DNA of 64,000 nucleotides, from positions 3,264,001-3,328,000 of the forward strand of contig OZ240215.1 of NCBI GenBank assembly GCA_965197585.1. Direction: 5' to 3'. The notes beneath the pieces were generated by a model. That model saw only the letters and a program-made list of their open reading frames with translations, was not told the DNA's origin and ran no database searches. A program made the translations under genes and the position numbers. Origin of the DNA: Dehalococcoidia bacterium. GTDB taxonomy: Bacteria > Chloroflexota > Dehalococcoidia > Plut-88900. Of this stretch, positions 44,815-64,000 are shown piece by piece; the first letter of the stretch is position 1, and every line of letters starts with the position of its first letter.

Positions 44815-47800
44815 CTAGCCCGAGAAGTATAGAACAAGCACCGCCAGCACGTCGTCCTTGCTGATCTCGCCGTCGAAGTAGTCGCTTACCGCTCGGATAG
44901 CTTCACTTCTCTCTATGCTCTCGTTCCTGTTGGCATCGTACTCGCTTAGCAGTTCCATTTGAGCCACACCCGAGCTCGTTGCCGCCTGCGCACTCTTACC
45001 AGTCCCGACTGCATCGTCGTAGCTGACCGTGGCCCGCAGGAATATGCCCGCGTCACTCTCTCCCGGCGTGTAGCTCGCCGACGTAGCTCCCTGGATGTCC
45101 GTCCACCCTGTGGAGCCGTTACTCGACTTCGCCCATTGCCAGGTTGCTCCCGTGACCCCGCCGTCGGGGTCCGACAGAGTTGCCGTGATCTCACTCCCGA
45201 CCTCCGGCGTCCTTGTCGAAAGCGTTACCGTACCGTCATCGTCTTCTGCGACTGCGGCTGCCGTCACGGCATTCGCGCTCTTCCCGGGGCCCACCGAGTC
45301 TGTGTAGCTCGCCGTGGCCCGCAGGTAGCTGCCCACATTGGCGGTCGTCGCCGTGTAGCTGTTGGACGTAGCATTCAATATGAACACCCAGTTTGACGTG
45401 CCGTTGCGGGACATCTCCCATTGCCAAGTGACTCTCCTTACACCGCCGTCGGGATCGTCGATCCTAGCCGTCACAATGTCCCCGGCTGTCGGCATCGTCT
45501 CCGACAGGGTCACCCTTCCGTCGTCGTCCAGTGCCACCGCCGCCGTCGTGACCGCTTCGGCACTCTTGCCTGGCCCCGCTGCATCTGTGTAGCTCGCAGT
45601 CGCCCGCAGGTAGCTCCTCACATCCGCCGCCACGGTGGTATACGTGGACGAATTTGCTCCTATTATTGTTCTCCAGTTCGTCGTCCCGTTGGAGGAGAAG
45701 GCCCACGTCCACGTGACACCTGTTACTCTGCCGTCGGGGTCCGACAACACCGCCGTTACCCTCTCGCCTACCTCTGGGCTCGAAGGGGACAGGGTCACCG
45801 ACCCGTCGTCGTCCTCCGTCACCGCCGCTGCCGTGATGACCTCCGCGGTCTTGCCGGCGCCCGCGGCATCGTCATAGATAACCGTGGCCCGCAGGTATTT
45901 GCCCAGGACGCCCGCAGCAACCGTGTATGTCGCTGAATTGGCGCCGGCTATGCTCGTCCAGTTGCTCGTGCCGTTGGAGGAGGTCGCCCATTGCCAGGTT
46001 GCTCTCGTGACCCCGCCGTCGGGGTCCGTCAGCGTAGCAGTTACCGTTTCCCCGACCGTCGGCTCCGTCGGAGACAGCGCCACTACCCCGTCGTCGTCCT
46101 CCACTACAGCCGACGTGGTTACCGCCTCTGCGCTTTTGTCCGTGCCGTCTCCGTCATCATAGCTCGCCGTGGCCCGCAGGAAGGTACCCACGTCCGCCTC
46201 AGCTGCCGTGTAGGTTGACAACGTGGCCCCCGGTATGTCCAGCCAACCCGAGGTACTGCTCTCCGAACTGGCCCACTGCCAGGTCAGGTTTCTTATGTTT
46301 CCGTCCGGGTCCGTCAACCTCGCCGTAACACTGTCACCCACTGCCACCCGGTCCGCACTCAGCGTCACCCTGCCGTCGTCGTCCGCCAGCACCGCCGCAG
46401 TGGTTCTCGCACTGGCGCTCTTGCCCCCGCCCTCGGGGTCCGAGTAGTAGGCCGTCGCCTGCACGTAGTAGCCCCTGTCCTCCGCATCGAGGATGTAGCT
46501 ATCCGAGTTCGTCCCGGGGATCGGCGTCCACCCCGTCAACCCGGTCTCCGACCTCTCCCACTCCCAGCTTACGCTTGTCGGATCGCCATCGGGGTCCGTC
46601 AACTCGGCAGTGATCCGGGCCCCGATGGTGCCCCGCGTGGGCGTCAGCTTCACCTCTCCCTCTTCGTCGACGTTGTACACGTCTACCGTCACGTCCAACG
46701 CGTCCATCTCCCTGCCGGAGCGCGCCGTCACCGTCAGCTCGTATACGTTGTCCTTGTCCGAGTCCGCGGGGGACTCGAAGTTGGGCGTCGACCTGAAGGA
46801 CAGCGCCCCGCGGCTGTTTATCGAGAAGTCGGAGGCGTCGGTTCCGCTGAGCCTCCAGCTGACGTTGCCGGAATTCGGCCCCAGCGCCGAGTAGTCCGCC
46901 ACCCTGTCCCTGCCCTTCTCCGGGAAGCTGATGCTTCCGCGTCCCACCGCCACCAGCCCCGTCCTGGACAGCGTCGGCGTCTCGTCCACGTCTATCACGT
47001 CGATCGTCACCCTGATTGTATCGGACCTGCCGGACGGGTCCACGGCCCTGACGGTCACGCTGTACCTGTTCTTGGTCTCGAAGTCCAACTCAGTCCCGGC
47101 CGCCACGCTGATTTGGCCGGTGCCCCGGTCGATTGTGAAGTAGCGTGTGTCGCCGCCACTCAGCGAGTACTCCAATGTGTCGCGTGTACCATTAGAACAG
47201 TCTTGGGGATCGACATCGCAGTCCACGGCCGTAACTGTGTCGCCCACGATGTTGTCGATTGCATCGTTGGAGAGTACATCCTCCCGCACTTCTTTCGTGA
47301 CGCTAGCGCCTTCGAACTCCGGAGCTTCGTTGTTTCCATCCTCCATTTCTACAATGTTCGCAGTCGGTTCTGATGCGACCTTTTTACTGCCTTCCCCGTC
47401 TGAGTAGCTGGCCACGGCGGTTAAAGTTGCCCCAACGTCGGTATTACCCGTAATTACCTTCGGAGTGTAGCGAGATGAAGTGGCGCCAGAGATTAAGCAG
47501 TCTGTATCATTGTCGACGGCGCAGGTATTAGTTGGTAAGCTGTCCGGATTGACGTTTCTGTACCACTGCCAACGAACGCTTTTTTCCCTGTCCGGATCGC
47601 TCAGGCTGGCCGTCAGCGGCGTCCTGACCTCCGGCTCCGTGTGCGACAACCTCACCGTTCCTTTCTCTCCCACGTTCTCAACGGTTATCTTCACCTTCAC
47701 AGAAGCCGTATTGCCCGCCTCATCGGCGGCCTGCACCGTGACTTCGTACACGTTGTTGCGGCCCGAGTCCGTCGCCGCTTCGTAGTCCGGCCCGCTCTTG

Positions 47801-50800
47801 AAAGTTAGAGTGCCATTGTCGAGGTTGAAGTCGTCGGCGTCCGTCCCGGCCAGCGTCCAGGTAAGGGTGGCGTTGTTGGTGCCTGCAGTATTGGGAGCTG
47901 TATCTTTTTCAGGGTCGTCGGCCAAAAAGGCGATGCTCAAGCTTGTAGTGGCGGCATCGGCGACCGATTCCCTATTACTGGAAACAACCAGCTCGGAGTG
48001 TGTGAATCCCGAGTCGAGGTCCCCTCCGGATGTTCCGGTTATATTGGCGACCGGTAAGGTCAGCACCGGAAGTTCGTTCACATCTTTGACGTTGATGGTA
48101 ACGGTTATGAGGTCCCTTGACTCGGCGCCTGTTGTGTCGGATGGGTCTCTGGCGGTAACCGTGACGGTATAAGACTCCTTTGTCTCGTGGTCCAAGTCTG
48201 TATCACGCTTGACCTTTATCTGCCCCGTTCTCTGGTCTATTTCGAACGAGGCGACATCGGTGCCACCTAACTCATAGGTCAAATTTTCCGGCCTCCCCCT
48301 GTCCCCAATGTCCGTAGCCGCAACCGGGGCGCCCACGTTGGTCCCCGCTCTAGCATTCTCGTTTACTTCCCTTGTAGTGGTTTCCACATCATCGCCGGTC
48401 TCCGGGTCCTGGAATTCGGGCGGACCCGATTCCTTCCACTGCGTCGTGTTGTTCGAGACGACATAGGCGCTCTTGCCTCCGTCATGCGCGTCCGTGTAGG
48501 TCACCGTCGCCCGCAGGTACATCCCTGTATCGTCATTTTTCGGGGTGTAGGTTGCCTGGCTCGCACCCTGTATGTCTGTGAATCCCCCGCTCCTGGATGA
48601 AGACCTGGCCCATTGCCATGCATCGCCGGATACACCCTCGTCGAGGTCCGTAAGGGTAGCCGTTAGCCCGGCCTCCTCCCTCGGCTGCTGGCTCAAGGCA
48701 ACCTTACCCTTCTCGTCCACGTTAATGATGGCGATCGTTATGTCCTCAGTGTCGGTGTGGGCGGTATTGCCGTCACTCGCATTCACTATAACCGAGTACG
48801 CATTCTCATCCTCGTAGTCTGGAGATTCTCTGAACCTCAAAACGCCGCGGACAAGCGTGAACTCGTCTGCATCGGTCCCTGTCAAGGTCCACTCTATGCT
48901 CCTTCCCTCGGGGTCATCCGCCCTGTACGTAGCTACGGTGCCCCTGCCGTTCTCCGCGTAGTATATGTACACGTCTCCCGACGTGATTGACGGCGCGTCG
49001 TCCACGTCATCCACCACTATGGTCAGGGAATGGGTGTCCCTTGCCCCGCTGGGGTCCTCCGCTGTTACCGTAACCCTGTAGCTGGACCTCTTCTCGTGGT
49101 CTAGCACGGCCCTCGTTTTGATCTGCCCCGTATCCTGCTCAATCGAGAAGGCCGAATCGCCGCCGCTGATTGAATACGTCAAATCATCGTTGTCCGGGTC
49201 CTCTGCCCTCACCTCCCCATCGACATTCTCTCTCACCGGCTCGTTCTCGCGTATGGTCAGACTGGCCGGTGCCGCGGTGAACCTTGGGCTTTGATTCCCA
49301 CCGGACGGCCGATCATCAACACTGGCCTTACTGTCAACAGACAATGTCTGCCTTTCGCCCGTTCCGTCGGTGTAGGTGACACTCACCTCCAACGTCCTGT
49401 TTATATCTGCTGTCTTTGGGGTATAGGCATTGGCCCTGGACTCAACGTTGGTGCTTATTTTCCAAGTCCAGATCAGGTTGCTTATCGGTGTGTCGGGGTC
49501 CGTCAAAGTGGGAGTTATTCTGGTCCCCACCTGCGGGTACAGGTTGGACACGGTCAATAGCCCCGGTTCATCCTCATTCTCGACGTGTACGGTCACGTCC
49601 CGGGTTGTCTTATTGCCTCCCCTGTCCGTGACCTCCACCGTCACCTCGTACACGTTGTCCCGGTCCGAGTCCGTCGGCGCTTCGTAGTCCGGGGCCTCCC
49701 TGAAGGTCAGCCGGCCATGCTCGTCGGCGAGGTTGCCGATGGAGAACCTGGCCGCATCCCGGCCCGAGAGCGACCACTTCAGAGACGCAGGGTTATCGCC
49801 GTCCGGGTCTTCGGCCTCATAGCTGGACACCTCCGTGCCAATGGACGTGTTCTCATCATAATCTACCGAAGTGCTTCCCGCCGTGATTATCGGGGCTTCG
49901 TCCACGTCCGTAACCGTGATGGTCACGCCTATTTCGGCACTTCCACCGGACGGGTCCGTAGCCTTGACCGATACCGAGTGTGTGCTCCCGCCCGTAGCTT
50001 CGTAGTCCAGCGCAGCCTTCACCCTTATCTGCCCCGTCCCGCTGTCTATGTCGAAGTTTCTGTCGTCGGCGCCCGACAACACGTAGGTCAGGGTTTCCTG
50101 CCGTCCGTCGAAGCCCGGGTCCGTTGCCGTCACCGGCGCACCCACCACCGTCCCCGCCTCCGAGTTCTCCGCCACGCTCCTGGTTGTGCGCGTTATAACT
50201 TTCCCATTCTCATCCAGGAATCTGGGAGCTTTGTTGCTGGGGTCCGCCTGCACCGGGTTGACCGAGATGGCCTCGGCCGTCTTCTTGGGCTCGCACGGCT
50301 CGCAGTGACCGTCTTGGTAGGTCGCCGTCGCCCGGAGGTACATCCCCACGTCGTCTTCCGTCGGAGTGTAGGAGGGCTCCGTCCCCTCCACTTTCATCGT
50401 CGTGCTTGCATCGTCTTTGACGTCCGTCCAGCCCCCCGTCGCCCGAGTCGAACGCGACCATTGCCACGCTGTGTTGGCATCGCTGGTCAAGCCGATAGTG
50501 GTGACGGGGAAGGTGCGCGTGCCTGTGACCCGTGGGCCGTCCGCGTCCGTAAGCGTCGCAGTTATATCCACGCTCTCCTGGGGCTGCAGTGTGGAGAGAT
50601 CAACCTCTCCATCCTCATCCACGTTCGTCACCGACACCCTTATTGTCTTGGTGACGGGCCGAATAACAGGACGTAGGGATGCTCTGTTAGTGTCAGTAAT
50701 AAAGTCTGCATCGGTGTCCGTGGCCCGGATCGTCACCGCGTACATGTTGTTTGTGTCGGCGTCCACCGGGGCCTCGTAGTCCGGCGTATTGACGAACGTC

Positions 50801-51069
50801 AGCCGTCCCTCGCTGATTTCAAAGTCTCCGGCGTCGGTTCCCGACAGCGCGTTCCACGTCACGCCCTTCTCCTCGGGGTCCAAGGCCGTCAACACGATCA
50901 CCGCCCCGCTCTCCTCCTCCGGGTACTCGATGCAGTAGTCTTCGTCGCACCGCGCCTGCCCCTCCCCCAGCCCCCCGCTCATCAGAAACACCGCCACCGC
51001 CCCGGCCAACAACACCAGGCTCAGCGCCCCCCGCCCCACCCATCCTTTTAATATAGACGAATGCATCAT
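44815..51069 (-). CDS. Giant secreted cadherin/Ig-repeat protein (2084 aa) with C-terminal EF-hand/dockerin-like module
   Basis: N-terminal signal peptide; repeated PDYE/LDYE, DPDG, NVDE motifs; six tandem ~95 aa DDDGxVTLS..WQW..YLRATASY repeats; ends YDANRNESIERSEAIRAVSDYFDGEISKDDVLAVLVLYFSG. Confidence 0.9.
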   Translation of the reverse strand: MMHSSILKGWVGRGALSLVLLAGAVAVFLMSGGLGEGQARCDEDYCIEYPEEESGAVIVLTALDPEEKGVTWNALSGTDAGDFEISEGRLTFVNTPDYEAPVDADTNNMYAVTIRATDTDADFITDTNRASLRPVIRPVTKTIRVSVTNVDEDGEVDLSTLQPQESVDITATLTDADGPRVTGTRTFPVTTIGLTSDANTAWQWSRSTRATGGWTDVKDDASTTMKVEGTEPSYTPTEDDVGMYLRATATYQDGHCEPCEPKKTAEAISVNPVQADPSNKAPRFLDENGKVITRTTRSVAENSEAGTVVGAPVTATDPGFDGRQETLTYVLSGADDRNFDIDSGTGQIRVKAALDYEATGGSTHSVSVKATDPSGGSAEIGVTITVTDVDEAPIITAGSTSVDYDENTSIGTEVSSYEAEDPDGDNPASLKWSLSGRDAARFSIGNLADEHGRLTFREAPDYEAPTDSDRDNVYEVTVEVTDRGGNKTTRDVTVHVENEDEPGLLTVSNLYPQVGTRITPTLTDPDTPISNLIWTWKISTNVESRANAYTPKTADINRTLEVSVTYTDGTGERQTLSVDSKASVDDRPSGGNQSPRFTAAPASLTIRENEPVRENVDGEVRAEDPDNDDLTYSISGGDSAFSIEQDTGQIKTRAVLDHEKRSSYRVTVTAEDPSGARDTHSLTIVVDDVDDAPSITSGDVYIYYAENGRGTVATYRADDPEGRSIEWTLTGTDADEFTLVRGVLRFRESPDYEDENAYSVIVNASDGNTAHTDTEDITIAIINVDEKGKVALSQQPREEAGLTATLTDLDEGVSGDAWQWARSSSRSGGFTDIQGASQATYTPKNDDTGMYLRATVTYTDAHDGGKSAYVVSNNTTQWKESGPPEFQDPETGDDVETTTREVNENARAGTNVGAPVAATDIGDRGRPENLTYELGGTDVASFEIDQRTGQIKVKRDTDLDHETKESYTVTVTARDPSDTTGAESRDLITVTINVKDVNELPVLTLPVANITGTSGGDLDSGFTHSELVVSSNRESVADAATTSLSIAFLADDPEKDTAPNTAGTNNATLTWTLAGTDADDFNLDNGTLTFKSGPDYEAATDSGRNNVYEVTVQAADEAGNTASVKVKITVENVGEKGTVRLSHTEPEVRTPLTASLSDPDREKSVRWQWYRNVNPDSLPTNTCAVDNDTDCLISGATSSRYTPKVITGNTDVGATLTAVASYSDGEGSKKVASEPTANIVEMEDGNNEAPEFEGASVTKEVREDVLSNDAIDNIVGDTVTAVDCDVDPQDCSNGTRDTLEYSLSGGDTRYFTIDRGTGQISVAAGTELDFETKNRYSVTVRAVDPSGRSDTIRVTIDVIDVDETPTLSRTGLVAVGRGSISFPEKGRDRVADYSALGPNSGNVSWRLSGTDASDFSINSRGALSFRSTPNFESPADSDKDNVYELTVTARSGREMDALDVTVDVYNVDEEGEVKLTPTRGTIGARITAELTDPDGDPTSVSWEWERSETGLTGWTPIPGTNSDSYILDAEDRGYYVQATAYYSDPEGGGKSASARTTAAVLADDDGRVTLSADRVAVGDSVTARLTDPDGNIRNLTWQWASSESSTSGWLDIPGATLSTYTAAEADVGTFLRATASYDDGDGTDKSAEAVTTSAVVEDDDGVVALSPTEPTVGETVTATLTDPDGGVTRATWQWATSSNGTSNWTSIAGANSATYTVAAGVLGKYLRATVIYDDAAGAGKTAEVITAAAVTEDDDGSVTLSPSSPEVGERVTAVLSDPDGRVTGVTWTWAFSSNGTTNWRTIIGANSSTYTTVAADVRSYLRATASYTDAAGPGKSAEAVTTAAVALDDDGRVTLSETMPTAGDIVTARIDDPDGGVRRVTWQWEMSRNGTSNWVFILNATSNSYTATTANVGSYLRATASYTDSVGPGKSANAVTAAAVAEDDDGTVTLSTRTPEVGSEITATLSDPDGGVTGATWQWAKSSNGSTGWTDIQGATSASYTPGESDAGIFLRATVSYDDAVGTGKSAQAATSSGVAQMELLSEYDANRNESIERSEAIRAVSDYFDGEISKDDVLAVLVLYFSG

Positions 51070-51227
51070 AGCTACACCTTGCTTACTTCTCTCATCCCGA
51101 GGCCCCGAGAATGGGATCCAGGACTTGCGCAGTAACCGCTCAGCCTGCCCTCCAATAGTTAGATAGGAACGCCGAGCCCAATAAAAAAACTACTTCATTC
51201 TTCGCACAAGTCTTAAACCTAATCCGA

Positions 51228-51256
51228 ATTCTCTCAATCACCAAAGCATATGTCAA
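51228..51256 (-). promoter_or_regulatory. Probable sigma70 promoter of the 2084 aa gene
   Basis: Minus strand TTGACA-N17-GAGAAT with TGn extension. Confidence 0.55.
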
Positions 51257-51283
51257 CTTATCCCCCCATCCGATGGGAGCCAG

Positions 51284-51298
51284 TCCGCCTTAGGCGGA
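51284..51298. repeat. TCCGCC-N3-GGCGGA palindrome
   Basis: TCCGCCTTAGGCGGA; same arms as 44655-44669. Confidence 0.8.
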
Positions 51299-51332
51299 TC
51301 ATTCCTGCCCCCGAGCCGGAATCCATCCCCCT

Positions 51333-51475
51333 CCCCCCAGTACTGAATTAGAGGTCCACGTGCGTGCCCTGCACGCACGTGGACCTCTATTCTTATCTCC
51401 CCCTCTCCCTTGAAGGCCCTAAGGGTCGAAGATGCGCCTGTGGCGTGAGAGGGGGATCAAGGGGGTGAGGGTTCC
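51333..51475 (+). repeat. Composite palindromic repeat, copy 1 (REP/MITE-like)
   Basis: CCCCCCAGTAC, perfect 19 bp hairpin 51349-51389, CCCTCTCCCTTGAAGGCCCTAAGGGTCG...GAGAGGGGGATCAAGGGGGTGA; repeated at 52310-52475. Confidence 0.85.
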
Positions 51476-51746
51476 CCCGTGGGGCTGGGGCGGTGTCCCC
51501 CCAAAAGTGACACGAACCCCTTGACTGCATGCGCACACATGTACTATATTCACCCCCGGCTAGCTAGTCACACACCTAAACCCAAAGGAGGAACACACAA
51601 CCCAGGGGGAACACCAGCCCCGACTCACCCTGCCCCCTGCTTCCAGGCGATGGAAGGCCCAAAAACTTGTTCGGCAAGCCCTCTTCAGAGGCCCCTGCCG
51701 ATGCGCTTCCCATTATAGGATGCGTCTATCCCCGGCCCCTCGCGTG

Positions 51747-51830
51747 CCGGGTTCCCGGGTAGGTCTACCGGCCCCCGGGTTCCCGGGTAGGTCTACCGGC
51801 CCCCGGACTCCCGGGTAGGTCTACCGGCCC
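51747..51830 (+). repeat. Tandem repeat, 3 x 28 bp
   Basis: CCGGGTTCCCGGGTAGGTCTACCGGCCC x2 plus a third copy with 2 mismatches. Confidence 0.92.
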
Positions 51831-52133
51831 CCCGGGCTAGCAAGGCCCTCGTGCCCTTGCTCTTCCCGCCGTCCCAGCCATCCGTCTCTATGACCGATGC
51901 ACTGGGACGCCGGTTATGTCCCCCGTCAGCGGTCCGGTCATGTGCCGCTCACGAATTGGGATCGGCCCCACACAACCCTGACCACAGCCGACAACGTGTG
52001 GGGATAATCCAGCCCGGCGCCGACGGCACGGCACAAACCCCCGGCCTGGTTTCTAGTCCCGGACCTTCCATCGCCTCCCCCCTCCCAACAAACAGAACCG
52101 AAACCCACAAACCCCACAATCGAAGATGGAACA

Positions 52134-52163
52134 TCCGCCTCTGGAGGATCCGCCTCAGGAGGA
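52134..52163. repeat. Two tandem degenerate TCCGCC-N3-GG(A)GGA palindromes
   Basis: TCCGCCTCTGGAGGA TCCGCCTCAGGAGGA. Confidence 0.7.
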
Positions 52164-52309
52164 CTGAATAAAAACCCGGTGTGTCACTAATCTACCGAAC
52201 GAGCACACTCCCTTGACGGGTCGCAGATGCGCCGAGGCGTGAGAGGCCTGGGGCCCTAGGCTCGCCGAGGAGGGTGAGGGTGATCCCCCTCCCCCTTCTC
52301 CTTATATCC

Positions 52310-52475
52310 CCCCCCAGTACCAAACTAGAGGGATACGCCTGCGCCCTCGCGCAGGCGTATCCCTCTGTTTATCTTTCCCCCTCTCCCTTGAAGGCCCTAA
52401 GGGTCGCAGATGTCGCAGATGCGCCCTTGGCGTGCGCCACCGGCGTGAGAGGGGGATCAAGGGGGTGAAGGTTCC
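52310..52475 (+). repeat. Composite palindromic repeat, copy 2 (third partial copy at 52208-52280)
   Basis: Same flanks as 51333-51475 but a different perfect 18 bp hairpin at 52327-52366. Confidence 0.85.
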
Positions 52476-52750
52476 TATCCCCATCCCCCTTGTTTCCCTT
52501 GACTTACAGTGTTATCCTTCTCCCCGACGCTTTTCGGCGCATTTACACCCTACATACCCCACACGGGCCCTCCACTCCCTCGGGCCCCAGGACACCGCAA
52601 TTGCTCGACGTTTCGTTCGACCAATTCGTCCCTTCACCGGCCTTATCGGCCCCTAGTCCTGGAAGGAGCTAACTAACCCTGACCATCATGCCTACCACAT
52701 TGTCTCCACCCTATTCCCACATTGACACCCCCAATTGTGCAATAATTCTA

Positions 52751-52780
52751 TTGACACGACTCGAAAGGCGGTGCTAACAT
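52751..52780 (+). promoter_or_regulatory. Probable sigma70 promoter flanked by CAATTGTGCA direct repeats
   Basis: TTGACA-N18-TAACAT with TGn; CAATTGTGCA at about 52732 and 52787. Confidence 0.6.
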
Positions 52781-52856
52781 GCCCCGCAATTGTGCAAACA
52801 GCTATGGAAATGGTAATGTTGTCCCTGTCCCAAGACTCCACAAAGTGAGGCAGCTC

Positions 52857-55800
52857 ATGCTTAAGAGACCCTTCAAATCATTGATAGCCCGAATAGCCAT
52901 CGTCGCTCTCGCGCTGTCCCTCGTAGTCCCCTTCGTGCCTGCGGCCTTCGCCCAGGACGCGTCGTTCCCCTATGCGGAGGACCGCAATGACCCGGTGGCG
53001 ACCTTCACGGCGACCGATGCTGACGGAGACGCCATTGTCTGGTCGTTGAGCGGAGCGGATGCTGAACTCTTCACGATAGAGGGCGGCGTACTGGCATTCA
53101 AGAAGTCGCCTGACTACGAGAGTCCTGGAGACTCGGGATCTGACAACACCTACAACGTGACGTTGAACGCCTCCGGCGGCAGCCGTGACGTTGCCGTAAC
53201 GGTGACGAACGTGGACGAACCCGGTTCGGTGAGCCTGACTGACCTGCAGCCGCAGGCTGGAGAGCCTGTGGGAGCGTCGGCAAGTGACCAGGACGGGAGT
53301 CTGGACCAGACGACGTGGCAGTGGTCGAAGTCGATGGACGAGGCGGCGTGGAGTGACATCTCCGGGGCCAGTTCCCCGACGTACACGCCGGCGACTGAGG
53401 ACATAGGCTACTACCTGAGAGCAACGGCTTCCTACAGTGACGGTTTTGGCACTGGGCGAGACGATGCCAGTGCGGTTACGGCCTTTGCTGTGGAGGAGAG
53501 GCCGGTGGCCAACGCCCAGCCGGCGTTTGCCGATGATGAGACTGATACTCCGGACAGCAGTGAACAGACCCGTGCGGTGAGGGAGACGGCGAAGGGTGGC
53601 GACAGTGTAGGTAACGCAGTTACGGCGTCGGACTCCGATAACGACCCGCTGCTCTACAGCATGGACGGCACCCCGGTCGACCTCACTGGTATTTCCCCCA
53701 CCGAGAATGCGACAGGGGTTGATCCCGATGCTCTGTTCACGATTGACAGTAAGAGCGGGCAGATTTCGGTGAAGAGCGGTGCCAATACAGACTACCTGGA
53801 CCTTGAGAAGTACTTCACGACCGCGGCTGATGCGAATGCAGATCCGCCTGTGGAGCAGTCATTAGAATACATGGTCACTGTAACGGCTGAGGATCCGTCG
53901 GGTTCGATAGCCACGGTGACGGTGACGATCGAGGTCACGGCGGTGGACGAAGCGCCGGAAATTACACTGGTGACCGTTGGGTTGGGAATCGGCCAAACAG
54001 CTAGAATCTCCACACCCGGCCAAACCTTCGTGGTAAACACGCCGGAGCAGGACCCGTTGGATCTGGAGTCGCAAGCCGGCAGCGATGACGCCTTCTCCCA
54101 AGGTCTCCCGGTGTTCGATGCGGACGACCCTGAAGAAGCTACCGATCCTAATGTAGACAAGATAACCTGGACGATATCCGGGGTTGACGCCAAGCGCTTC
54201 CAGATAGCGAAGCTTGTTAATGCCGAAAACGGGGTTTCAGCTCCCAACGAGGGCTTCAACAGCAGCGCAGCGCTGCGGTGGTCCGCTGCGGACAGGAAAG
54301 GTCCCAGCTTCGAAGCTATGGACTCGGCTGATGGTGACAACGTGTACCTGGTGACGGTGACGGCCTTTGACGGCGTAGCCAGCAAGTCCCAGGACGTGAG
54401 CATCACGGTGAGGAACGTAGAAGAGGACGGGAGCATAAGCCTGTCGCAACTTGTGCCGCAGGAAGGCATAGCGGTAACAGCCCGTTTGAGCGACCCGGAC
54501 GGTGGCATAACGGGTGCCACGTGGCAGTGGTACAGAGGCGTTACGAATACTGCTGAATTGCCGGAAATAGATGACGCTGAAACTAACAAGTGCGACGCCG
54601 AACGTACTTCGAATTGCTGGATAGAGGGCGCGACATCGTCCACCTACACACCGAGGGCGGCTGACGCCACTGGTGGTCCCGATGACAGCGATAACAACCC
54701 GACAGCTCAGAAGCTGACGGTAGTGGCGAAATACACGGACGCCTACGTAACGGATGATGACACGCTAAATGACGACGGTACGGTAACACAGGGCACCTCA
54801 GACGACGTAGACGATGGCGACATGGTCATTGAGACATCGGCGCACGATGCGAGGGTGAGGCCGGACCAGAACGCCCAGCCTAGCTTTGGTGACGATGAGT
54901 CGGTGGACAGGAGCGTGGAGGAGAACGCCAAGAATGTCAGTGTTGGAGAGCCGGTGACGGCGACCGACGGCGACGACGACCCGCTGCTCTACACGCTTAG
55001 CGGAGATGACAGCGACAACTTCAAGGTGAACAACTCTGGGCAGATAGAAACTGCTAAGGCTTTGGACTTCGAGACGCAGTCTAGCTACAGCGTAATGGTG
55101 ACGGCGACCGACCCGTCCGGGGCCAATGACTCCATCGAGGTGAACATCACCGTAACCGACGCCGATGACCCCGCTACCATTTCGGCCGACGGGTCTGTTT
55201 CCTATGCGGAGGACCGCAATGACCCGGTGGCGACCTTCATGGCGACCGATGCTGACGGAGACGCCATCGTCTGGTCGTTGAGCGGAGCGGATGCGGAACT
55301 CTTCACGATAGAGGGCGGCGTGCTTGCGTTCAAGAAGTCGCCCAACTACGAAAGTGCTGGGGACGAGGGATCTGACAACACCTACAACGTGACGTTGAAC
55401 GCCTCCGGCGGCAGCCGTGACGTTGCCGTAACGGTGACGAACGTGGACGAACCCGGTTCGGTGAGCCTGACTGACCTGCAGCCGCAGGCTGGAGAGCCTG
55501 TGGGAGCGTCGGCAAGTGACCAGGACGGGAGTCTGGACCAGACGACGTGGCAGTGGTCGAAGTCGATGGACGAGGCGGCGTGGAGTGACATCTCCGGGGC
55601 CAGTTCCCCGACGTACACGCCGGCGACTGAGGACATAGGCTACTACCTGAGAGCAACGGCTTCCTACAGTGACGGTTTTGGCACTGGGCGAGACGATGCC
55701 AGTGCGGTTACGGCCTTTGCTGTGGAGGAGAGGCCGGTGGCCAACGCCCAGCCGGCGTTTGCCGATGATGAGACTGATACTCCGGACAGCAGTGAACAGA

Positions 55801-58346
55801 CCCGTGCGGTGAGGGAGACGGCGAAGGGTGGCGACAGTGTAGGTAACGCAGTTACGGCGTCGGACTCCGATAACGACCCGCTGCTCTACAGCATGGACGG
55901 CACCCCGGTCGACCTCACTGGTATTTCCCCCACCGAGAATGCGACAGGGGTTGATCCCGATGCTCTGTTCACGATTGACAGTAAGAGCGGGCAGATTTCG
56001 GTGAAGAGCGGTGCCAATACAGACTACCTGGACCTTGAGAAGTACTTCACGACCGCGGCTGATGCGAATGCAGATCCGCCTGTGGAGCAGTCATTAGAAT
56101 ACATGGTCACTGTAACGGCTGAGGATCCGTCGGGTTCGATAGCCACGGTGACGGTGACGATCGAGGTCACGGCGGTGGACGAAGCGCCGGAAATTACACT
56201 GGTGACCGTTGGGTTGGGAATCGGCCAAACAGCTACCATCACCACACCTGGGCAAACCTTCGTGGTAAACACGCCGGAGCAGGATCCGTTGGCTCTGCGG
56301 TCACAAGGCGAAACCACGGACCCCTTCTCCCAAGGTCTCCCGGTGTTCAATGCGAACGACCCGGAAAGTGAGACCCCAGAAGAGATAACGTGGTCGATAT
56401 CCGGGGATGACGCCAAGCGCTTCCAGATAGCGGAGCTTGATACCCCCAACACTGACTTCGACAGCAGCGCAGCGCTGCGTTGGGCCTCTGATGACGGGAA
56501 AGGTCCCAGCTTCGAAGCTATGGACTCGGCTGATGGTGACAACGTGTACCTGGTGACGGTGACGGCCTTTGACAGCGTTGCCAGCAAGTCTCAGGACGTG
56601 AGCATCACGGTGAGGAACGTAGAAGAGGACGGGAGCATAAGTCTGTCGCAGCTTGTGCCGCAGGAAGGCATAGCGGTAACAGCCCGTTTGAGCGACCCGG
56701 ACGGTGGCATAACGGGCGCCACGTGGCAGTGGTACAGAGGCGTTACGAATACTGCTGAATTGCCGGAAATAGATGACGCTGAAACTAACAAGTGCGACGC
56801 CGAACGTACTTCGAATTGCTGGATAGAGGGCGCGACATCGTCCACCTACACACCGAGGGCGGCTGATGCCACTGGTGGAGGTACTGATAACCCACCCACT
56901 GACCCCCAGAAGCTGACGGTGGTGGCGAAATACACGGACGCCTACGTAACGGACAGGTTCGGCGGTACTGATGGCACCGACCCGACCGACGCTGATGACC
57001 CCGCCAATCCTGACGGCACTGACGATGGTGACATGGTCATTGAGACATCGGCGCACGATGCCAGGGAGAGGCCGGACCAGAACGCCCAGCCTAGCTTTGG
57101 TGACGATGAGTCGGTGGACAGGAGCGTGGAGGAGAACGCCAAGAATGTCATAGTCGGAGAGCCGGTGACGGCGACCGACGGCGACGACGATCCGCTGCTC
57201 TACACGCTTAGCGGAGATGACAGCGACAACTTCAAGGTGAACAACTCTGGGCAGATAGAAACTGCTAAGGCTTTGGACTTCGAGACGCAGTCTAGCTACA
57301 GCGTAATGGTGACGGCGACCGACCCGTCCGGGGCCAATGACTCCATCACGGTGAACATCACCGTAACCGACGCCGATGACGGCGCAACCATTGAGGCCAA
57401 CGTGGCCCCAGAGTTCGACGGCGACACCGCAGACCGCAGTGTCCCAGAGGACGCCGAAGCCGGCGCCAACGTCGGCGGCCCCGTGGTCGCTACGGACGGC
57501 AACTCCGGTGACTCCGTGAGCTACGCCCTCAGCGGCGACGAAGCCGGCAGCTTCGCAATCTGGCCCAACGGCCAGATCACCGTAGCCGAAGGCGTCACCC
57601 TGGACTACGAGACCAGGAACGCCTACACCGTGGTCCTCACGGCCACCGATGGCTCGGGCGCAACCGACTCCATAACGGTCAACATCAGTGTGACCGACGT
57701 GGATGAGAACATCGCCCCCGCTTTCGCAGAAGAGAGCGCAACCCTCAGCGTGGTAGAAAACACCGGCGCTGGCAGCAACGTCGGTGACCCGGTGGTCGCC
57801 ACAGACGCCGATGAGGACGAGCTTACCTACGCCCTCAGCGGCGACGGTGCTGGCAGCTTCGAAATCTGGCCCAGCGGCCAGATCACCGTAGCCGAAGGCG
57901 CCAACCTGGACTACGAGTCCCAGACCAGCCACATGGTGACAGTCACCGCCAGCGACGGTAAAGGCGGCAGCGCCTCCATCGCCGTGACCATCAACGTCAG
58001 CAACGTAGGCCTGGATAACGCCTACGACGCGAACGACGATGGCGCAATCAGCAAGGACGAGGCAGTGACAGCCGTGAACGGCTACTTCCTGGACGAGATA
58101 ACCAGGGACGAGGCCCTCGTAGTCCTGGGCCTCTACTTCGCCGCCAATGGCGACGATGACGCCGCCACTGACGATGACGCCGCCACTGACGATGACGCCG
58201 CCACTGAAGACGACGCGGCCACCGAAGATGACGCCGCCTCCGAAGATGACGCCGCCGCTGACGATGACGCGGCCTCTGACGATGACGCCGCCTCTGACGA
58301 TGACGCCGCCGCCGATGACGCCGACTCCGGTGACACGGAAGCGTAG
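52857..58346 (+). CDS. Giant secreted cadherin-repeat protein with a 744 aa internal duplication, dockerin-like module and acidic tail
   Basis: Signal peptide MLKRPFKSLIARIAIVALALSLVVPFVPAAFA; cadherin motifs; YDANDDGAISKDEAVTAVNGYFLDEITRDEALVVLGLYF; SD GAGG before 52857. Confidence 0.9.
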   Translation: MLKRPFKSLIARIAIVALALSLVVPFVPAAFAQDASFPYAEDRNDPVATFTATDADGDAIVWSLSGADAELFTIEGGVLAFKKSPDYESPGDSGSDNTYNVTLNASGGSRDVAVTVTNVDEPGSVSLTDLQPQAGEPVGASASDQDGSLDQTTWQWSKSMDEAAWSDISGASSPTYTPATEDIGYYLRATASYSDGFGTGRDDASAVTAFAVEERPVANAQPAFADDETDTPDSSEQTRAVRETAKGGDSVGNAVTASDSDNDPLLYSMDGTPVDLTGISPTENATGVDPDALFTIDSKSGQISVKSGANTDYLDLEKYFTTAADANADPPVEQSLEYMVTVTAEDPSGSIATVTVTIEVTAVDEAPEITLVTVGLGIGQTARISTPGQTFVVNTPEQDPLDLESQAGSDDAFSQGLPVFDADDPEEATDPNVDKITWTISGVDAKRFQIAKLVNAENGVSAPNEGFNSSAALRWSAADRKGPSFEAMDSADGDNVYLVTVTAFDGVASKSQDVSITVRNVEEDGSISLSQLVPQEGIAVTARLSDPDGGITGATWQWYRGVTNTAELPEIDDAETNKCDAERTSNCWIEGATSSTYTPRAADATGGPDDSDNNPTAQKLTVVAKYTDAYVTDDDTLNDDGTVTQGTSDDVDDGDMVIETSAHDARVRPDQNAQPSFGDDESVDRSVEENAKNVSVGEPVTATDGDDDPLLYTLSGDDSDNFKVNNSGQIETAKALDFETQSSYSVMVTATDPSGANDSIEVNITVTDADDPATISADGSVSYAEDRNDPVATFMATDADGDAIVWSLSGADAELFTIEGGVLAFKKSPNYESAGDEGSDNTYNVTLNASGGSRDVAVTVTNVDEPGSVSLTDLQPQAGEPVGASASDQDGSLDQTTWQWSKSMDEAAWSDISGASSPTYTPATEDIGYYLRATASYSDGFGTGRDDASAVTAFAVEERPVANAQPAFADDETDTPDSSEQTRAVRETAKGGDSVGNAVTASDSDNDPLLYSMDGTPVDLTGISPTENATGVDPDALFTIDSKSGQISVKSGANTDYLDLEKYFTTAADANADPPVEQSLEYMVTVTAEDPSGSIATVTVTIEVTAVDEAPEITLVTVGLGIGQTATITTPGQTFVVNTPEQDPLALRSQGETTDPFSQGLPVFNANDPESETPEEITWSISGDDAKRFQIAELDTPNTDFDSSAALRWASDDGKGPSFEAMDSADGDNVYLVTVTAFDSVASKSQDVSITVRNVEEDGSISLSQLVPQEGIAVTARLSDPDGGITGATWQWYRGVTNTAELPEIDDAETNKCDAERTSNCWIEGATSSTYTPRAADATGGGTDNPPTDPQKLTVVAKYTDAYVTDRFGGTDGTDPTDADDPANPDGTDDGDMVIETSAHDARERPDQNAQPSFGDDESVDRSVEENAKNVIVGEPVTATDGDDDPLLYTLSGDDSDNFKVNNSGQIETAKALDFETQSSYSVMVTATDPSGANDSITVNITVTDADDGATIEANVAPEFDGDTADRSVPEDAEAGANVGGPVVATDGNSGDSVSYALSGDEAGSFAIWPNGQITVAEGVTLDYETRNAYTVVLTATDGSGATDSITVNISVTDVDENIAPAFAEESATLSVVENTGAGSNVGDPVVATDADEDELTYALSGDGAGSFEIWPSGQITVAEGANLDYESQTSHMVTVTASDGKGGSASIAVTINVSNVGLDNAYDANDDGAISKDEAVTAVNGYFLDEITRDEALVVLGLYFAANGDDDAATDDDAATDDDAATEDDAATEDDAASEDDAAADDDAASDDDAASDDDAAADDADSGDTEA
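52969..57380 (+). repeat. Intragenic tandem duplication (about 52969-55170 and 55201-57380, initial offset 2232 bp)
   Basis: Long identical nucleotide blocks; near-identical shadow ORFs 53150-53404 and 55382-55636 offset by 2232. Confidence 0.95.
58152..58325 (+). repeat. 18 bp coding tandem repeat, (D/E)DDAA(T/S/A) about 9-10 copies
   Basis: GACGATGACGCCGCCACT units. Confidence 0.9.
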
Positions 58347-58400
58347 AGGCGCACGCGGCAAATAGAGAGTAAGTAAAGAAAGCAAGAAGGAGTAAGGAAC

Positions 58401-60353
58401 TTGGTCAAGAAAGCGCTGATGCTGCTGGGAGTCCTCGCAATTGTCGGGGTCGCTGGCCTGTCGCTGTTGCTGCCGGATGCCGTGAGCGCAAGCGGGCACA
58501 GCGCGACCAGGTCCTTCGCAAACAATACCGTAATTACAGGCGCCGAGCTGGAGATTGAGATATCGGTCTCCGGCCTCGGCGGCTTCGGCCAGGTGCGGGA
58601 GACCCTCCCCGAAGGTTTCTCCTTCACCGGGTCTGACGAATCCGCCGTCGTGGACGGCCAGACCGTTAGCTTCACCGTCCTCAACAGCGAGGCAACCTTT
58701 AGCTACACCGTCACCGCCCCCGCCGCCACCGGGACCTACGAATTCTCCGGCTCAGTCCTCGACTCTGACAAGGAAGGGGAGGACACCGGCGGAGACTCCT
58801 CCATAGAAGTCACAGACCCACCCCTCGTGGCGGAGAGGTCCATATCCCGTTCCTCCGTCGGCTCCGGGGAACAGATCACCATAAGCATAGCCGCCTCCGG
58901 ATTCGGCGCCGCGGCATCCGTGGCTGAGAACGTACCCGCTGGACTCACCTACACGTTCAGCAGTCTCTCCTCCGCCGCCGTTAACATAGACGAAGGTAGC
59001 ATCAGATTCACCCTCCTCGGCGAGGATAGCTTCAGCTACACCCTTACCGCCGGAGACCCGGGTGACTACACTATCTCTGGTACGATCACAGATTTGGACA
59101 GGGTAAGCTTAGACATCACCGGCGACGACAGCATAACCGTTTCCGCCGCCGTGCCTGCTACCGCTGACCGGTCCTTCGGCGCCGCCTTCGCAGAACCCGA
59201 AGGTGAAGTCGTTGTGACCATCGCGGCCGCCGGCTACGGGGCCGCCGCCCGGATCGTGGAAACCCTCCCTGAGGGCTTCACCTACGTGAACACAGACCTC
59301 CCCGGCGGTGCCACAGGCGCCGACGGGCAGTCGGTCACCTTCGTCATTCTCGGCGAAGACAGCTTCACCTACACCGTCATCGCCCCCGCTGACACGGGCG
59401 CCTATGCCTTCAGTGGCTCGCTGACTGATATCGACAAGAACGAAATCCCCATCGGAGGCACAACCGACTTGAAAGTTGGTGCTCCTCCGGCTTTCCCGGA
59501 GTCTGAGATGGGGATAAGAGAAATCGCCGAGAACACCGATGCGGGCGTCGACATCGGTGATCCGGTAGCGGCCGAGTCGACGGTCGGGGCACTGACATAC
59601 GAAATAACAGGTGATGATGCCCCAGACTTCGACATCGACACAGCCACTGGTCAATTGAAGACCAAATCCGCCCTTGACTACGAGACCAAGGCCAGCTACT
59701 CCGTCAGTGTAACCGCCACCGATGAACTCGGGAGTACGGCTTCCCTAGAAGTGACTGTTCAGGTCACCAATGTGTACGAGGGCATCATGATCACGGACAG
59801 CGGTGTCCGCGAAATCAACGAAAATACGCCCTTCGGCGTACGCATCGGCGACCCGATTGACGCCACTTCCGCCGATGGTAGCTCCTTGACCTTCGAGATC
59901 ACCAGCGCCGCCGCAGACACCTTCGACATCGAACCCGACACCGGTCAGTTGAGGACTAAGGGCGACCTGGACTTCGAGACCAGAGCCAGCTACTCGCTCC
60001 AGGTAACCATCACCGACGAGTACGGCGAGAGTGCCTCCCTGGTAGTAACCATCAAGGTCCTCGACCGTGATGAGTACGTCGAACCGACGGCCACACCTGA
60101 ACCTACAGCGGTGCCGCCCACGGCAGTGCCTCCCACGGCAGTACCGCCGACGGCCACTTCGGTGCCGCCCACGGCCACTTCAGTACCGCCCACAGCAGCA
60201 CCCGAACCGACAGTGGCGCCTGAGCCCACGGCCGTCCCTGAACCAGAGGATGAAGGTGGATTCCCGGTCTGGGCCATCATAGTGATAGTCCTGGCGGTAA
60301 TAGCGGGCGTAGCCATCATCGGGTTCGTCATCTACCGCAGACGCCAAGCGTAA
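58401..60353 (+). CDS. Membrane-anchored surface protein: 3 tandem ~105 aa beta-sandwich repeats, 2 cadherin domains, Pro/Thr linker, C-terminal TM
   Basis: Signal peptide; repeats AxRS..V.ETLPEGF..V.FT...FSYTVTA...G.Y.FSG; LDYE/LDFE; PTAVP repeats; TM plus RRR tail. Confidence 0.88.
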   Translation: MVKKALMLLGVLAIVGVAGLSLLLPDAVSASGHSATRSFANNTVITGAELEIEISVSGLGGFGQVRETLPEGFSFTGSDESAVVDGQTVSFTVLNSEATFSYTVTAPAATGTYEFSGSVLDSDKEGEDTGGDSSIEVTDPPLVAERSISRSSVGSGEQITISIAASGFGAAASVAENVPAGLTYTFSSLSSAAVNIDEGSIRFTLLGEDSFSYTLTAGDPGDYTISGTITDLDRVSLDITGDDSITVSAAVPATADRSFGAAFAEPEGEVVVTIAAAGYGAAARIVETLPEGFTYVNTDLPGGATGADGQSVTFVILGEDSFTYTVIAPADTGAYAFSGSLTDIDKNEIPIGGTTDLKVGAPPAFPESEMGIREIAENTDAGVDIGDPVAAESTVGALTYEITGDDAPDFDIDTATGQLKTKSALDYETKASYSVSVTATDELGSTASLEVTVQVTNVYEGIMITDSGVREINENTPFGVRIGDPIDATSADGSSLTFEITSAAADTFDIEPDTGQLRTKGDLDFETRASYSLQVTITDEYGESASLVVTIKVLDRDEYVEPTATPEPTAVPPTAVPPTAVPPTATSVPPTATSVPPTAAPEPTVAPEPTAVPEPEDEGGFPVWAIIVIVLAVIAGVAIIGFVIYRRRQA

Positions 60354-60403: not shown

Positions 60404-60446
60404 ATCCGCCCCCAGGGGTCACAACCCTTGGGGGCGGAGACTTTTT
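60404..60446 (+). terminator. Intrinsic terminator after the surface-protein operon
   Basis: TCCGCCCCCAGGG-loop-CCCTTGGGGGCGGA followed by GACTTTTT. Confidence 0.8.
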
Positions 60447-60494: not shown

Positions 60495-60797
60495 ATGCGT
60501 CTTACCTCTAAGGAGATGGATCGACTCACAATCTTCACCGCAGCCGAGCTCGCTCGGCGGCGGCGGCAGAGAGGCTTAAAACTAAACTACCCGGAGGCCG
60601 TAGCCCTCATATGCGACGAGCTTCTCGAAGATGGCCGCGAAGGTAAAACCTACGAAGAGGTTATGACACACGCGATCAATATTCTCTCCACTGATGACGT
60701 CCTGGACGGCGTCCCTGACTTGGTAACCCCCATCCGCCTCGAGGTCACCTTCGACGATGGGAACAAGCTCATATATGTGGAAAACCCCATCAGATAG
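60495..60797 (+). CDS. ureA: Urease subunit gamma-like
   Basis: MRLTSKEMDRL...RGLKLNYPEAVALI...EVTFDDGNKLIYVENPI. Confidence 0.93.
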   Translation: MRLTSKEMDRLTIFTAAELARRRRQRGLKLNYPEAVALICDELLEDGREGKTYEEVMTHAINILSTDDVLDGVPDLVTPIRLEVTFDDGNKLIYVENPIR

Positions 60798-60810
60798 GAG
60801 GACGATACCG

Positions 60811-61182
60811 ATGAAACCGGGCGAGGTCATTCCAGCCGAAAGTGCCATACAGATAAATGAGGGCCGAGAAGTTATCGCTATTTCTGTAACCAACACCTCG
60901 GACCATGCCGTCCAAGTCACGTCCCACTATCACTTCTTCGAAGCCAATAAACGGTTGCAGTTTGATCGGACTGCAGCCTATGGAAAACGACTCGACGTGC
61001 CTTCGGGCGCTGCAGTCCGATGGCAACCGGGGGAAACCAGGAGAGTCCGGCTGATAGACATCGGGGGAAAACGAAGAGTGTTCGGTTTCCAGGGGCTGGT
61101 TAACGGCCGACTAACTGACGAGCAACGCGGTGAGGCCCTACACCGGGCCCGAGACCGCGGCTTTCTGGACCAGGAGAGTTAA
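60811..61182 (+). CDS. ureB: Urease subunit beta-like
   Basis: MKPGEVI, QVTSHYHFFEAN, RLDVPSGAAVRWQPGE; SD GGAGG before 60811. Confidence 0.92.
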   Translation: MKPGEVIPAESAIQINEGREVIAISVTNTSDHAVQVTSHYHFFEANKRLQFDRTAAYGKRLDVPSGAAVRWQPGETRRVRLIDIGGKRRVFGFQGLVNGRLTDEQRGEALHRARDRGFLDQES

Positions 61183-61184
61183 CC

Positions 61185-62966: not shown

Positions 62967-64000
62967 CTTGGATACGCGCAAGGGCTGGTTGAGGCAAAGA
63001 AATTTGCGAGAGATTTCGACGAGAACGACACCGGCTTGGTGTTCCAGTTCGCAGCTACCGACCCGGAAGGCCAGCCGATTAGATGGGAGCTGCCGGGAGA
63101 TGACGCTGCCGATTTCTACATTACGGAAGGTGCACTTTCATTTAGTGTCACTCCTGATTACGAAAACCCGGCTGACAAGAACCGCGACAACATATACCAG
63201 GTAACGGTAGAGGCCAGAGACCCCGGATTTAACGTAGCCCCCGCCGACGTGACCGTTACAGTGCTCAATGTGGACGAACGGGGTACGGTAACCCTTTCCA
63301 CCCAGACTCCTCAAGAGGAAGTCGGTCTGAGTGCTGAACTTTCTGACCCTGACGGTATCACCACCCAGGCTCAGTGGCAGTGGTCCCGCTCCTCCGACGG
63401 CTTGAACGGTTGGACGAACATCAGTGGCGCCGCGACAAGAAATTACACTCCCGTAGAAGCCGATGTCGGCGGCTACCTTCGTGCCGCGGCCACCTATGAG
63501 GATGCCCAGAGCGTAGACGTGGAAAAAACTGCCCACGGAATATCGGCCAACCCGGTTTTGGCCAAACCCTACATAAACCAGGCCCCAGAGTTCCTTGACG
63601 AGGAACCCACAAGAACTGTGAACGAAAATGCGGCTGCCGACGCCCCAGTGGGTGACCCTGTTGCAGCCGAAGACCCCGACGACGATCCCTTGACCTACGC
63701 CCTCAGCGGCACCGATGCAGGTTCCTTCGGCATCGATGACAGCACCGGCCAGATTTCGGTGCCCGCCGAAACCTCTTTGGACTTCGAGACCAAGAGTAGC
63801 TATTCCGTCACCGTTACAGCCACCGACCCCTCAGGCGAAAGCGATAGCGTCGACATGACCATTACCGTCATGGACGTGAACGAACCACCGGATGTGACAG
63901 AGGGCGAAACGGACCTTGAGCACGCTGAACATGGCACTGATGCTGTTGAGCAATTTGTAGCAGTAGACCCCGAAGGCCAGGACGTTAGTTGGAGACTCTC
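62967..64000 (+). CDS. Cadherin-repeat protein, start unclear, runs off the window
   Basis: Frame open from 62967 after TGA: ...ATDPEGQPIRW...PDYENPADKNRDN...WQWSRS...LDFETK...; not in the ORF track because it has no stop. Confidence 0.8.

Follow-up and report, generated by a model that had tools for sequence, protein, structure and literature searches.

Cohesin–dockerin systems display secreted proteins on the cell through a small docking module and an anchored receptor, and the dockerin itself consists of two tandem calcium-binding loop-helix (F-hand) segments. One case in gut bacteria reportedly concerns CttA and ScaE. A gut-bacterial adhesin is reported to be held by a dockerin–cohesin pair (PMC7456326). 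In anaerobic methanotrophic (ANME) archaea, Chadwick et al. (2022) describe classical dockerins on NikA/OppA-type binding proteins together with multi-cohesin scaffoldin-like proteins (PMC9012536), so tethering of solute-binding proteins (SBPs) by a docking module has precedent. Here we analysed a 64,000-nt stretch (the window; positions 3,264,001 to 3,328,000) of the genome of a Dehalococcoidia bacterium (GCA_965197585.1), a single contig (OZ240215.1) of 3.43 Mb with 59% G+C. Two giant secreted proteins encoded there, P0001 and P0002, carry a short tag with an EF-hand loop, and the gene that follows P0002 encodes P0003, which is anchored in the membrane and has three repeats of beta-sandwich type. 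Pairs of a tag gene and a repeat gene in this order are also found in many Dehalococcoidia and some methanogen-related archaea, and they point to an undescribed form of surface tethering that resembles cohesin–dockerin: a small calcium-loop-plus-helix module on varied secreted proteins, tandem beta-sandwich receptors on an anchored scaffold, and adaptor proteins that bear receptors as well as a docking module, with precedents in the known system for cargo other than enzymes.

The gene order is strongly conserved. An alignment of the three P0003 repeats, compared with the genomes of 185,579 species, found 241 relatives; 79 loci with 10-kb flanks were kept, of which 76 were testable. At 73 of these 76 loci, a tag lay at or near the C-terminus of the upstream open reading frame (ORF), on the same strand, and ended no more than 1000 nt from the first repeat (≤400 nt in 66 loci; median 193 nt). 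The three exceptions were a fused repeat-plus-tag protein (L102), a locus without a tag (L116) and a locus of Methanosalsum natronophilum (L117), where the 740-aa protein encoded upstream has, at its end, two helices in the pattern of the tag but no loop. The anchors mostly have 1–8 repeats followed by a C-terminal transmembrane helix and a basic (Arg-rich) tail. The preliminary description of this locus had named co-occurrence of the two modules across genomes as a test, and they do co-occur: among 401 genomes sampled from the class and searched with tag and repeat profiles at E ≤ 1e-6, 37 held both, 6 had the tag alone, 2 the repeat alone and 356 had neither module (43 with tags and 39 with repeats in total). 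The distribution is patchy over at least eight families. Thirteen class genomes have one tag match and one repeat match each, and among 41 relatives an identical set of ten genomes holds both tag and repeat.

The tag is no chance motif. Its hidden Markov model matched 3 of 36,497 ORFs genome-wide, with E from 1e-27 to 3e-25 and the next match at E 0.31; the three lie no more than 22 kb apart. P0001 ends in ...YDANRNESIERSEAIRAVSDYFDGEISKDDVLAVLVLYFSG, and the tag of P0002 reads YDANDDGAISKDEAVTAVNGYFLDEITRDEALVVLGLYFAA. The first half is an EF-hand loop, D-x-N-x-D-G-x-I-x-x-x-E, with an exiting helix after it; loop positions 1 (D14) and 12 (E25) are invariant in 31 of 31 tags from relatives, and G19 and I21 are at least 90% conserved. 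The second half (EITRDEALVVLGLYF) is a copy of the helix without loop positions 1–5, a duplication that can be read directly in P0002 (ISKDEAVTAVNGYF versus ITRDEALVVLGLYF), and each helix ends in an aromatic Y-F/L. The AlphaFold2 model (mean pLDDT 83.5) has the loop and helices at residues 23–34 and 40–52, with no entering helix. The preliminary description had proposed a C-terminal module common to both giants, with an EF-hand-like loop and helix followed by a degenerate second half. The 45-aa module is indeed in both proteins and is built in this way, but in P0002 it is not terminal, since a 66-aa acidic tail follows; this tail is 43 aa long in the G008 orthologue and missing from most relatives.

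The tag belongs with EF-hands by its 12-residue loop, D-x-[ND]-x-[DNS]-G-x-I-x-x-x-E in general form, and the exiting helix. It differs from them in being extracellular and single rather than paired, in the lack of an entering helix in the model and in its fusion to a duplicated, loop-less helix. Against PDB, the best 60 matches of the tag profile included no dockerin; EF-hand proteins such as secretagogin, ALG-2 and calmodulin were matched at E values as low as 9.7e-10. No Pfam family exceeded its threshold on the single tags of this genome: EF-hand models stayed at 14–17 bits (cut-off about 25), reaching 50 bits on a multi-tag relative, P0004, and Dockerin_1 (PF00404) had no match on the tags at E ≤ 10. 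A fold search of the 53-aa tag model against PDB gave nothing at E ≤ 0.001 (best E 4.4), the model being too small to inform. In a public protein library the profile matched 14,712 representative proteins at E ≤ 1e-3; among the best 150 of these, 91 were cross-hits to repeated calcium loops only and 59 had near-full-length tags, many with 2–4 in tandem. The tag is mostly C-terminal in relatives, but is also found N-terminally after a signal peptide, internally and in tandem, and at L018, L032 and L037 several hundred residues follow it. Variants without the loop, in the form of a two-helix tail or an N-terminal segment (for example ...VTLEDVIAAINEYMNS..PTLDQVVSLINAYMNQ and Y.ALIRYFHGEI.R.EL), adjoin repeat proteins in M. 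natronophilum (L117, 7668–9890) and in G377 (L123, 3638–7878).

Both giants had been taken to be secreted proteins without a transmembrane, LPXTG or SLH anchor, and this holds. Hydrophobicity revealed no transmembrane helix in either beyond the N-terminal segment, which is a signal or signal-anchor sequence in P0001 (aa 9–37) and a signal peptide in P0002 (...PAAFA/QDA). A motif scan of the two found no LPxT[GAN]. Sortase (PF04203) and SLH (PF00395) had no match genome-wide in searches that do match in control genomes. Both proteins are acidic, with strong Pfam Cadherin matches (P0001, E 6.7e-70, 232 bits; P0002, PF00028, 163 bits) and Ig-like repeats of the A9/SCAB type (SCAB-Ig/AIR9-like in P0001).

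P0003 has the layout already given to it in the preliminary description, at the same coordinates: a signal-peptide-like N-terminus, three beta-sandwich repeats, two cadherin spacers, a Pro/Thr stalk and a C-terminal transmembrane helix. Its repeats are about 110 aa each and 36–40% identical to one another. Their earlier reading as something other than classical cohesins is borne out by Pfam, which gives DUF11/BatD and never Cohesin: BatD (PF13584) exceeds its cut-off on repeat 2, repeat 1 scores 17.9 bits with DUF11 (PF01345; cut-off 24.6), and the repeats of L117 reach 50 bits with DUF11 and 44.1 bits with BatD. Cohesin (PF00963) had no match on the repeats at E ≤ 10 and none in 120 listed homologues. 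The repeats thus score with the DUF11 and BatD models but form a subgroup with conserved motifs of its own (R-S-F at the start; E-T-L-P-x-G-F). The public homologues are named just 'hypothetical protein' and have precomputed PF01345/PF13584 matches; literature searches found no partner or docking role for DUF11 repeats. The repeat profile had a single weak PDB match (2kyw, E 0.043), and the ESM Atlas placed the repeats in unnamed and DUF11/CARDB-type clusters (scores 0.83–0.94, low recognition).

Foldseek with the model of repeat 1 supported the beta-sandwich proposed earlier and listed cohesins, but other beta-sandwiches matched as well or better. The domain of the CLIPPER adhesin (9ifr; E 5.9e-6, TMq 0.74) was found alongside the archaeal non-cellulosomal cohesin 2xdh (rank 2; E 1.5e-5, TMq 0.62), CohA2 of C. 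acetobutylicum (6kgf; E 2.2e-4, TMq 0.61), the antigen I/II C-domain (3qe5; TMq 0.76), integrin domains (TMq 0.71–0.73) and YcnI. Because so many other beta-sandwiches match, the modelled repeat fold is compatible with a cohesin yet not specifically cohesin-like. Many anchors have a short [FI]-P-[VIL]-W motif directly before the transmembrane helix (L039–L113; GGFPVW in P0003, window 60231–60260), where an archaeal anchor has PGF; this motif may be a sorting signal.

The cargo (INDEPENDENCE) consists of upstream proteins of 235 to more than 4800 aa, the majority of them cadherin proteins. In a Methanosarcinales metagenome-assembled genome (MAG; L080), the tagged upstream protein is an SBP_bac_5 protein, a family-5 ATP-binding cassette (ABC) solute-binding protein (E 1.2e-75), with the tag as its last 43 aa. 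It is followed by a secreted protein with four repeats, a protein with two repeats, a Pro/Thr linker and a PGF-like C-terminal transmembrane helix, two ABC permeases and an ATPase. Elsewhere in this archaeal genome, another SBP5-tag gene precedes a repeat protein, and a PD40 propeller is tagged too. Further tagged proteins are a subtilase (Peptidase_S8), a trypsin-like protease (Trypsin_2) and HExxH matrixin-like Zn-metalloproteases. The idea of a docking system for adhesins is therefore too narrow, as ABC binding proteins and proteases are tagged as well as cadherin adhesins. With cargo this varied upstream of the repeats, the tag is the one feature common to the upstream proteins that travels with the repeats. 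An apparent fusion of SBP_bac_5 with DUF11 (P0187, P0213, P0223) is not supported: in the sequence of P0187, four repeats are followed by a cadherin domain, then a stalk and a transmembrane helix.

Some proteins combine both modules. At L047, L101 and L106, a protein with repeats and a tag is encoded directly upstream of a repeats-plus-transmembrane protein, and such proteins look like adaptors. Of 148 homologues found with the repeat region, we examined the best 120. Nine end in a tag and none of these nine has a C-terminal transmembrane helix, which is present in 87 of the 111 without a tag. Transmembrane anchor and tag thus replace each other at the C-terminus, which is what one would expect of a tag that itself attaches the protein. 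Overall, a docking-type module on varied secreted cargo, tandem repeats on an anchored protein and adaptors with both make up a scaffoldin-type architecture.

Docking of the tag on the repeats is the most economical reading of this architecture and, judged from sequence, a rather probable one. P0002 and P0003 would form a two-gene cargo–anchor unit (an operon) of a secreted cargo and its membrane anchor; their genes are 54 nt apart (stop to start), with no terminator-like site in between. The tag would be a portable docking module and the DUF11/BatD-like repeats its receptors, placed at the membrane-distal N-terminus of P0003 as a type-I membrane protein and kept off the cell by the cadherin spacers and the Pro/Thr stalk. 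Tagged proteins that lack an anchor would thereby be held on the surface of a cell without sortase or SLH matches. P0001, divergently encoded, may be a second cargo that uses the P0003 anchor in trans, and, judging by the loop sequence, docking would presumably need Ca2+. A complex prediction of the three-repeat region with the tag and one Ca scored 0.02 and 0.12 against a mark of 0.32 and, with controls not folded, speaks neither for nor against binding.

The three diverged repeats may differ in the class of tag that they take. Orthologues of repeat 1 in the genus are 51–95% identical to repeat 1 of this genome, versus 32–46% for orthologues of repeats 2 and 3. The tags fall into classes A, B and C, likewise conserved in the genus, with class B tags 57–72% identical within the class versus 34–47% to the A and C tags of the genus. 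Three repeat types, each old and distinct, and three tag classes fit type-specific slots. Anchors of other lineages (L034, L080, L117) have repeats that hardly differ from one another within the protein, as would suit multivalent display of a single tag type. Taken as a whole, the picture would be of a second display system separate from cohesin–dockerin, in which a single-EF-hand, two-helix tag docks on DUF11-type receptors of membrane-anchored scaffolds. It would be a mobile two-gene cassette shared by Dehalococcoidia (including SAR202-labelled MAGs) and Methanosarcinales, with adaptor hierarchies and type-specific pairing, and would tether adhesins, proteases and ABC binding proteins. We regard this full picture as plausible, though it falls a little short of probable.

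Several observations weigh against docking as drawn here. None of the computational tools showed contact between tag and repeat. Tags without a detectable repeat occur in 6 of the 401 class genomes, and one of them, G260, at 94% completeness in 2 contigs, carries a tandem array of 13 tagged genes and no repeat at E ≤ 1e-6. Conversely, two genomes have repeats and no tag at the same threshold (G195, with a weak match, and G377), and in G059 and G184 the anchor adjoins no tagged gene. Co-occurrence also follows largely from adjacency and shared descent, and the observations in the two-by-two table of genome counts are not independent. The loop-less variants (L117 and the N-terminal type of G377) keep the gene order, and calcium is therefore not essential everywhere. 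Evidence against a strict one-tag-per-repeat rule comes, finally, from the probable inactivation of the class C gene and from G005, the closest relative, with its two tags and three repeats; an arrangement of three adhesins on three slots is not established.

Self-association must be taken seriously as an alternative, since many tagged proteins carry 2–4 tandem tags and EF-hands are classically found in mutual pairs. The tag would then mediate calcium-dependent dimers, bundles or pairing within a protein, and the repeat protein would contact the cargo in some other way or act as a spacer or surface-layer component. This would account for the tandem tags in many of the 59 near-full-length proteins, for the matches of the tag profile to paired EF-hand proteins in PDB, and for the 13 tagged genes of G260 without a repeat, and EF-hands normally work in pairs. 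It leaves unexplained, however, why a repeat gene follows the tagged gene in 73 of 76 loci whatever the cargo, SBPs included, why repeat proteins end in a transmembrane helix or a tag but never both (0 of 9), and how the untethered giants stay on a cell without a sortase or SLH match. The 13 class genomes with one tag and one repeat match each also speak against it, and we consider self-association unlikely. The G260 array itself (C1:2153080–2201598; L120–L122) consists of genes for proteins of about 740–1720 aa, each ending in a tag, followed by a 656-aa fn3 protein with a Pro/Thr linker and a C-terminal transmembrane helix; this protein may be an alternative receptor.

If tag and repeat do dock, the principle is that of cohesin–dockerin, but with a receptor from a different Pfam family (DUF11/BatD). 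The Dockerin_1 and Cohesin models match neither module. Where the dockerin has two F-hand repeats, the tag has one canonical EF-hand loop only (Glu at position 12) and a loop-less second helix. The receptor is a DUF11/BatD-like domain of about 110 aa, as against 139 positions in the Pfam Cohesin model, and the anchor is a C-terminal transmembrane helix (PGF-like in one archaeon) instead of SLH or sortase. Cargo and anchor genes nearly always lie side by side, often one of each, and binding in this pair is inferred, unlike in cohesin–dockerin. We found no description of the tag/repeat pair in the literature, although supplement S4 of PMC9012536, a list of ANME dockerin/cohesin proteins, may already include archaeal tagged SBPs as dockerin proteins under other domain libraries. 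The one paper found to mention Dehalococcoidia as well as dockerins (PMC4877987) deals with Anaerolineae.

The same genome also has a classical pair. At genome positions 2195408–2197245 (G000; L118, 1447–3337, minus strand), a 454-aa Peptidase_MA_2 protein (HExxH) is directly followed by a 182-aa Cohesin protein, the order being cargo then receptor as in the tag/repeat pair. The 182-aa protein has a Cys-containing, lipoprotein-like signal sequence and matches Pfam Cohesin at E 2.4e-13, the sole match of PF00963 in the genome (2195408–2195761). The Peptidase_MA_2 protein ends in a single weak dockerin segment (E 0.004–0.009), likewise the sole genome match of PF00404 (2195895–2195975, E 0.0036). 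This pair bears on the proposal that the mechanism is docking but that tag and repeat are genuinely homologous to dockerin and cohesin, only strongly diverged, and did not arise independently. The tag does follow dockerin logic (a loop without an entering helix, an exiting helix and an internal helix duplication), and 2xdh and CohA2 are among the Foldseek matches of the repeat. Yet the Cohesin and Dockerin_1 models that find this pair miss tag and repeat at E ≤ 10, the repeats match DUF11/BatD, with up to 50 bits in L117, and CLIPPER, the antigen I/II C-domain and integrin are better structural matches. Together with the differences in repeat length and in the number of loops, and with the Glu at loop position 12 of the tag, this makes homology quite improbable.

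Alternatively, the tag could bind a non-protein component of the envelope (lipid head groups, glycan or S-layer) by itself, with the repeat gene co-transcribed for some other reason. Its portability, its varied cargo and the Pro/Thr linkers in between are reminiscent of cell-wall binding modules, and tag-only genomes (6 of 401) would be expected. Envelope binding nevertheless meets the same difficulties with synteny and adaptors as self-association. On direct reading the 45-aa acidic two-helix tag has no obvious lipid- or glycan-binding character, and the archaeal ABC operon places two repeat proteins exactly between the tagged SBP and the permease genes; we rate this explanation very unlikely. 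That the tag is a C-terminal sorting or secretion signal for a dedicated export or processing machine can be all but dismissed: it is at the extreme C-terminus in most cases, but N-terminal signal peptides are already present in the cargo, and tags are also found in N-terminal, internal and tandem positions, with 66 aa after the tag in P0002 and several hundred residues in L018, L032 and L037; in the loci read, no conserved processing enzyme gene lies beside the tag.

The features of the locus are listed below.

Table 1. Positions and properties of the tagged genes, the anchor gene and neighbouring sites, in window coordinates.
Feature	Position	Strand	Description
P0001	44815–51069	-	2084 aa; secreted giant; cadherin domains and A9/SCAB-Ig-like repeats
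Tag of P0001, class A	44818–44952	-	45 aa; EF-hand loop DANRNESIERSE, then two helices ending DYF and LYF; stop codon directly after
Promoter-like site	52751–52780	+	TTGACA, 18-nt spacer, TAACAT; consensus match only
P0002	52857–58346	+	1829 aa; secreted cadherin giant
Tag of P0002, class B	58011–58145	+	EF-hand loop DANDDGAISKDE, then two helices
Acidic tail of P0002	58146–58343	+	66 aa after the tag; Asp/Ala-rich, DDAAT-type repeats
P0003	58401–60353	+	650-aa anchor protein; TTG start, GGAG 8–10 nt upstream
Repeat 1	58494–58820	+	Beta-sandwich; AlphaFold2 all-beta, mean pLDDT 96.5
Repeat 2	58821–59150	+	Pfam BatD 29.0 bits (cut-off 24.1)
Repeat 3	59154–59486	+	No DUF11/BatD Pfam match
Two cadherin-type spacers	59511–60071	+	Best Pfam stretches aa 395–455 and 469–551; 88.5 bits
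Pro/Thr-rich stalk	60078–60245	+	PTAVPPTA... repeats; direct reading
C-terminal transmembrane helix	60246–60344	+	aa 616–648; Kyte-Doolittle 3.35; GGFPVW before, YRRRQA after
Terminator-like hairpin	60405–60438	+	15-bp stem, 3' of P0003; consensus match only
Third tagged gene, class C	62967–64000, on to genome 3330158 (genome 3326967–3330158)	+	5' part in window; cadherin gene

The reading frame of P0002 is open from 52779, but the start at 52857 (MLKRPFKSL...) is likelier because of the promoter-like site. Within P0002, aa ~46–775 and ~790–1512 form a near-identical internal tandem duplication of about 730 aa (local alignment score 578 at +1/-1 scoring), of recent date or kept alike by homogenisation. 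P0001 and P0002 are divergently encoded on either side of a 1.7-kb intergenic region, which holds two long hairpins with 19-bp stems (51349–51389 and 52326–52367) of related sequence, starting with TAGAGG and ending with CCTCT. Between the anchor gene and the class C gene (window 60495–62861) lie three ORFs that look like urease ureA, ureB and ureC by their size and translation ends.

To the two tagged giants of the preliminary description the genome thus adds a third tagged gene, which runs past the end of the window. It lacks a signal peptide and is interrupted by one in-frame TAA within the conserved ...YLRATANY*DRES motif; its orthologues in relatives are intact ORFs of about 1107–1113 codons. 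The copy in this genome is probably a recent pseudogene or a sequencing error.

RNA-labelled contigs from four metatranscriptome runs of one study (X5, X6, X7 and X10; 'sponge metagenome') match window positions 56500–60335 with 90–100% likeness and cover the 3' end of P0002 and the greater part of P0003; no weight is given to the lack of cover after 60336. The junction of the two genes is spanned by a contig of 188 nt (X5 record 11; 58307–58480, 3 other letters). Such RNA libraries can contain DNA, and a contig over two genes does not prove a single transcript; the contigs are a weak hint that P0002 and P0003 are expressed.

Dehalococcoidia are abundant and mostly uncultured, and how they retain surface proteins is poorly known. 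If the tag docks on the repeats, the finding would give a function to the tag and to a subgroup of the DUF11 repeats, which are annotated as being of 'unknown function', and would provide a new orthogonal protein–protein docking pair for engineering. The retention of giant adhesins and solute-binding proteins on the cell would likewise be explained.

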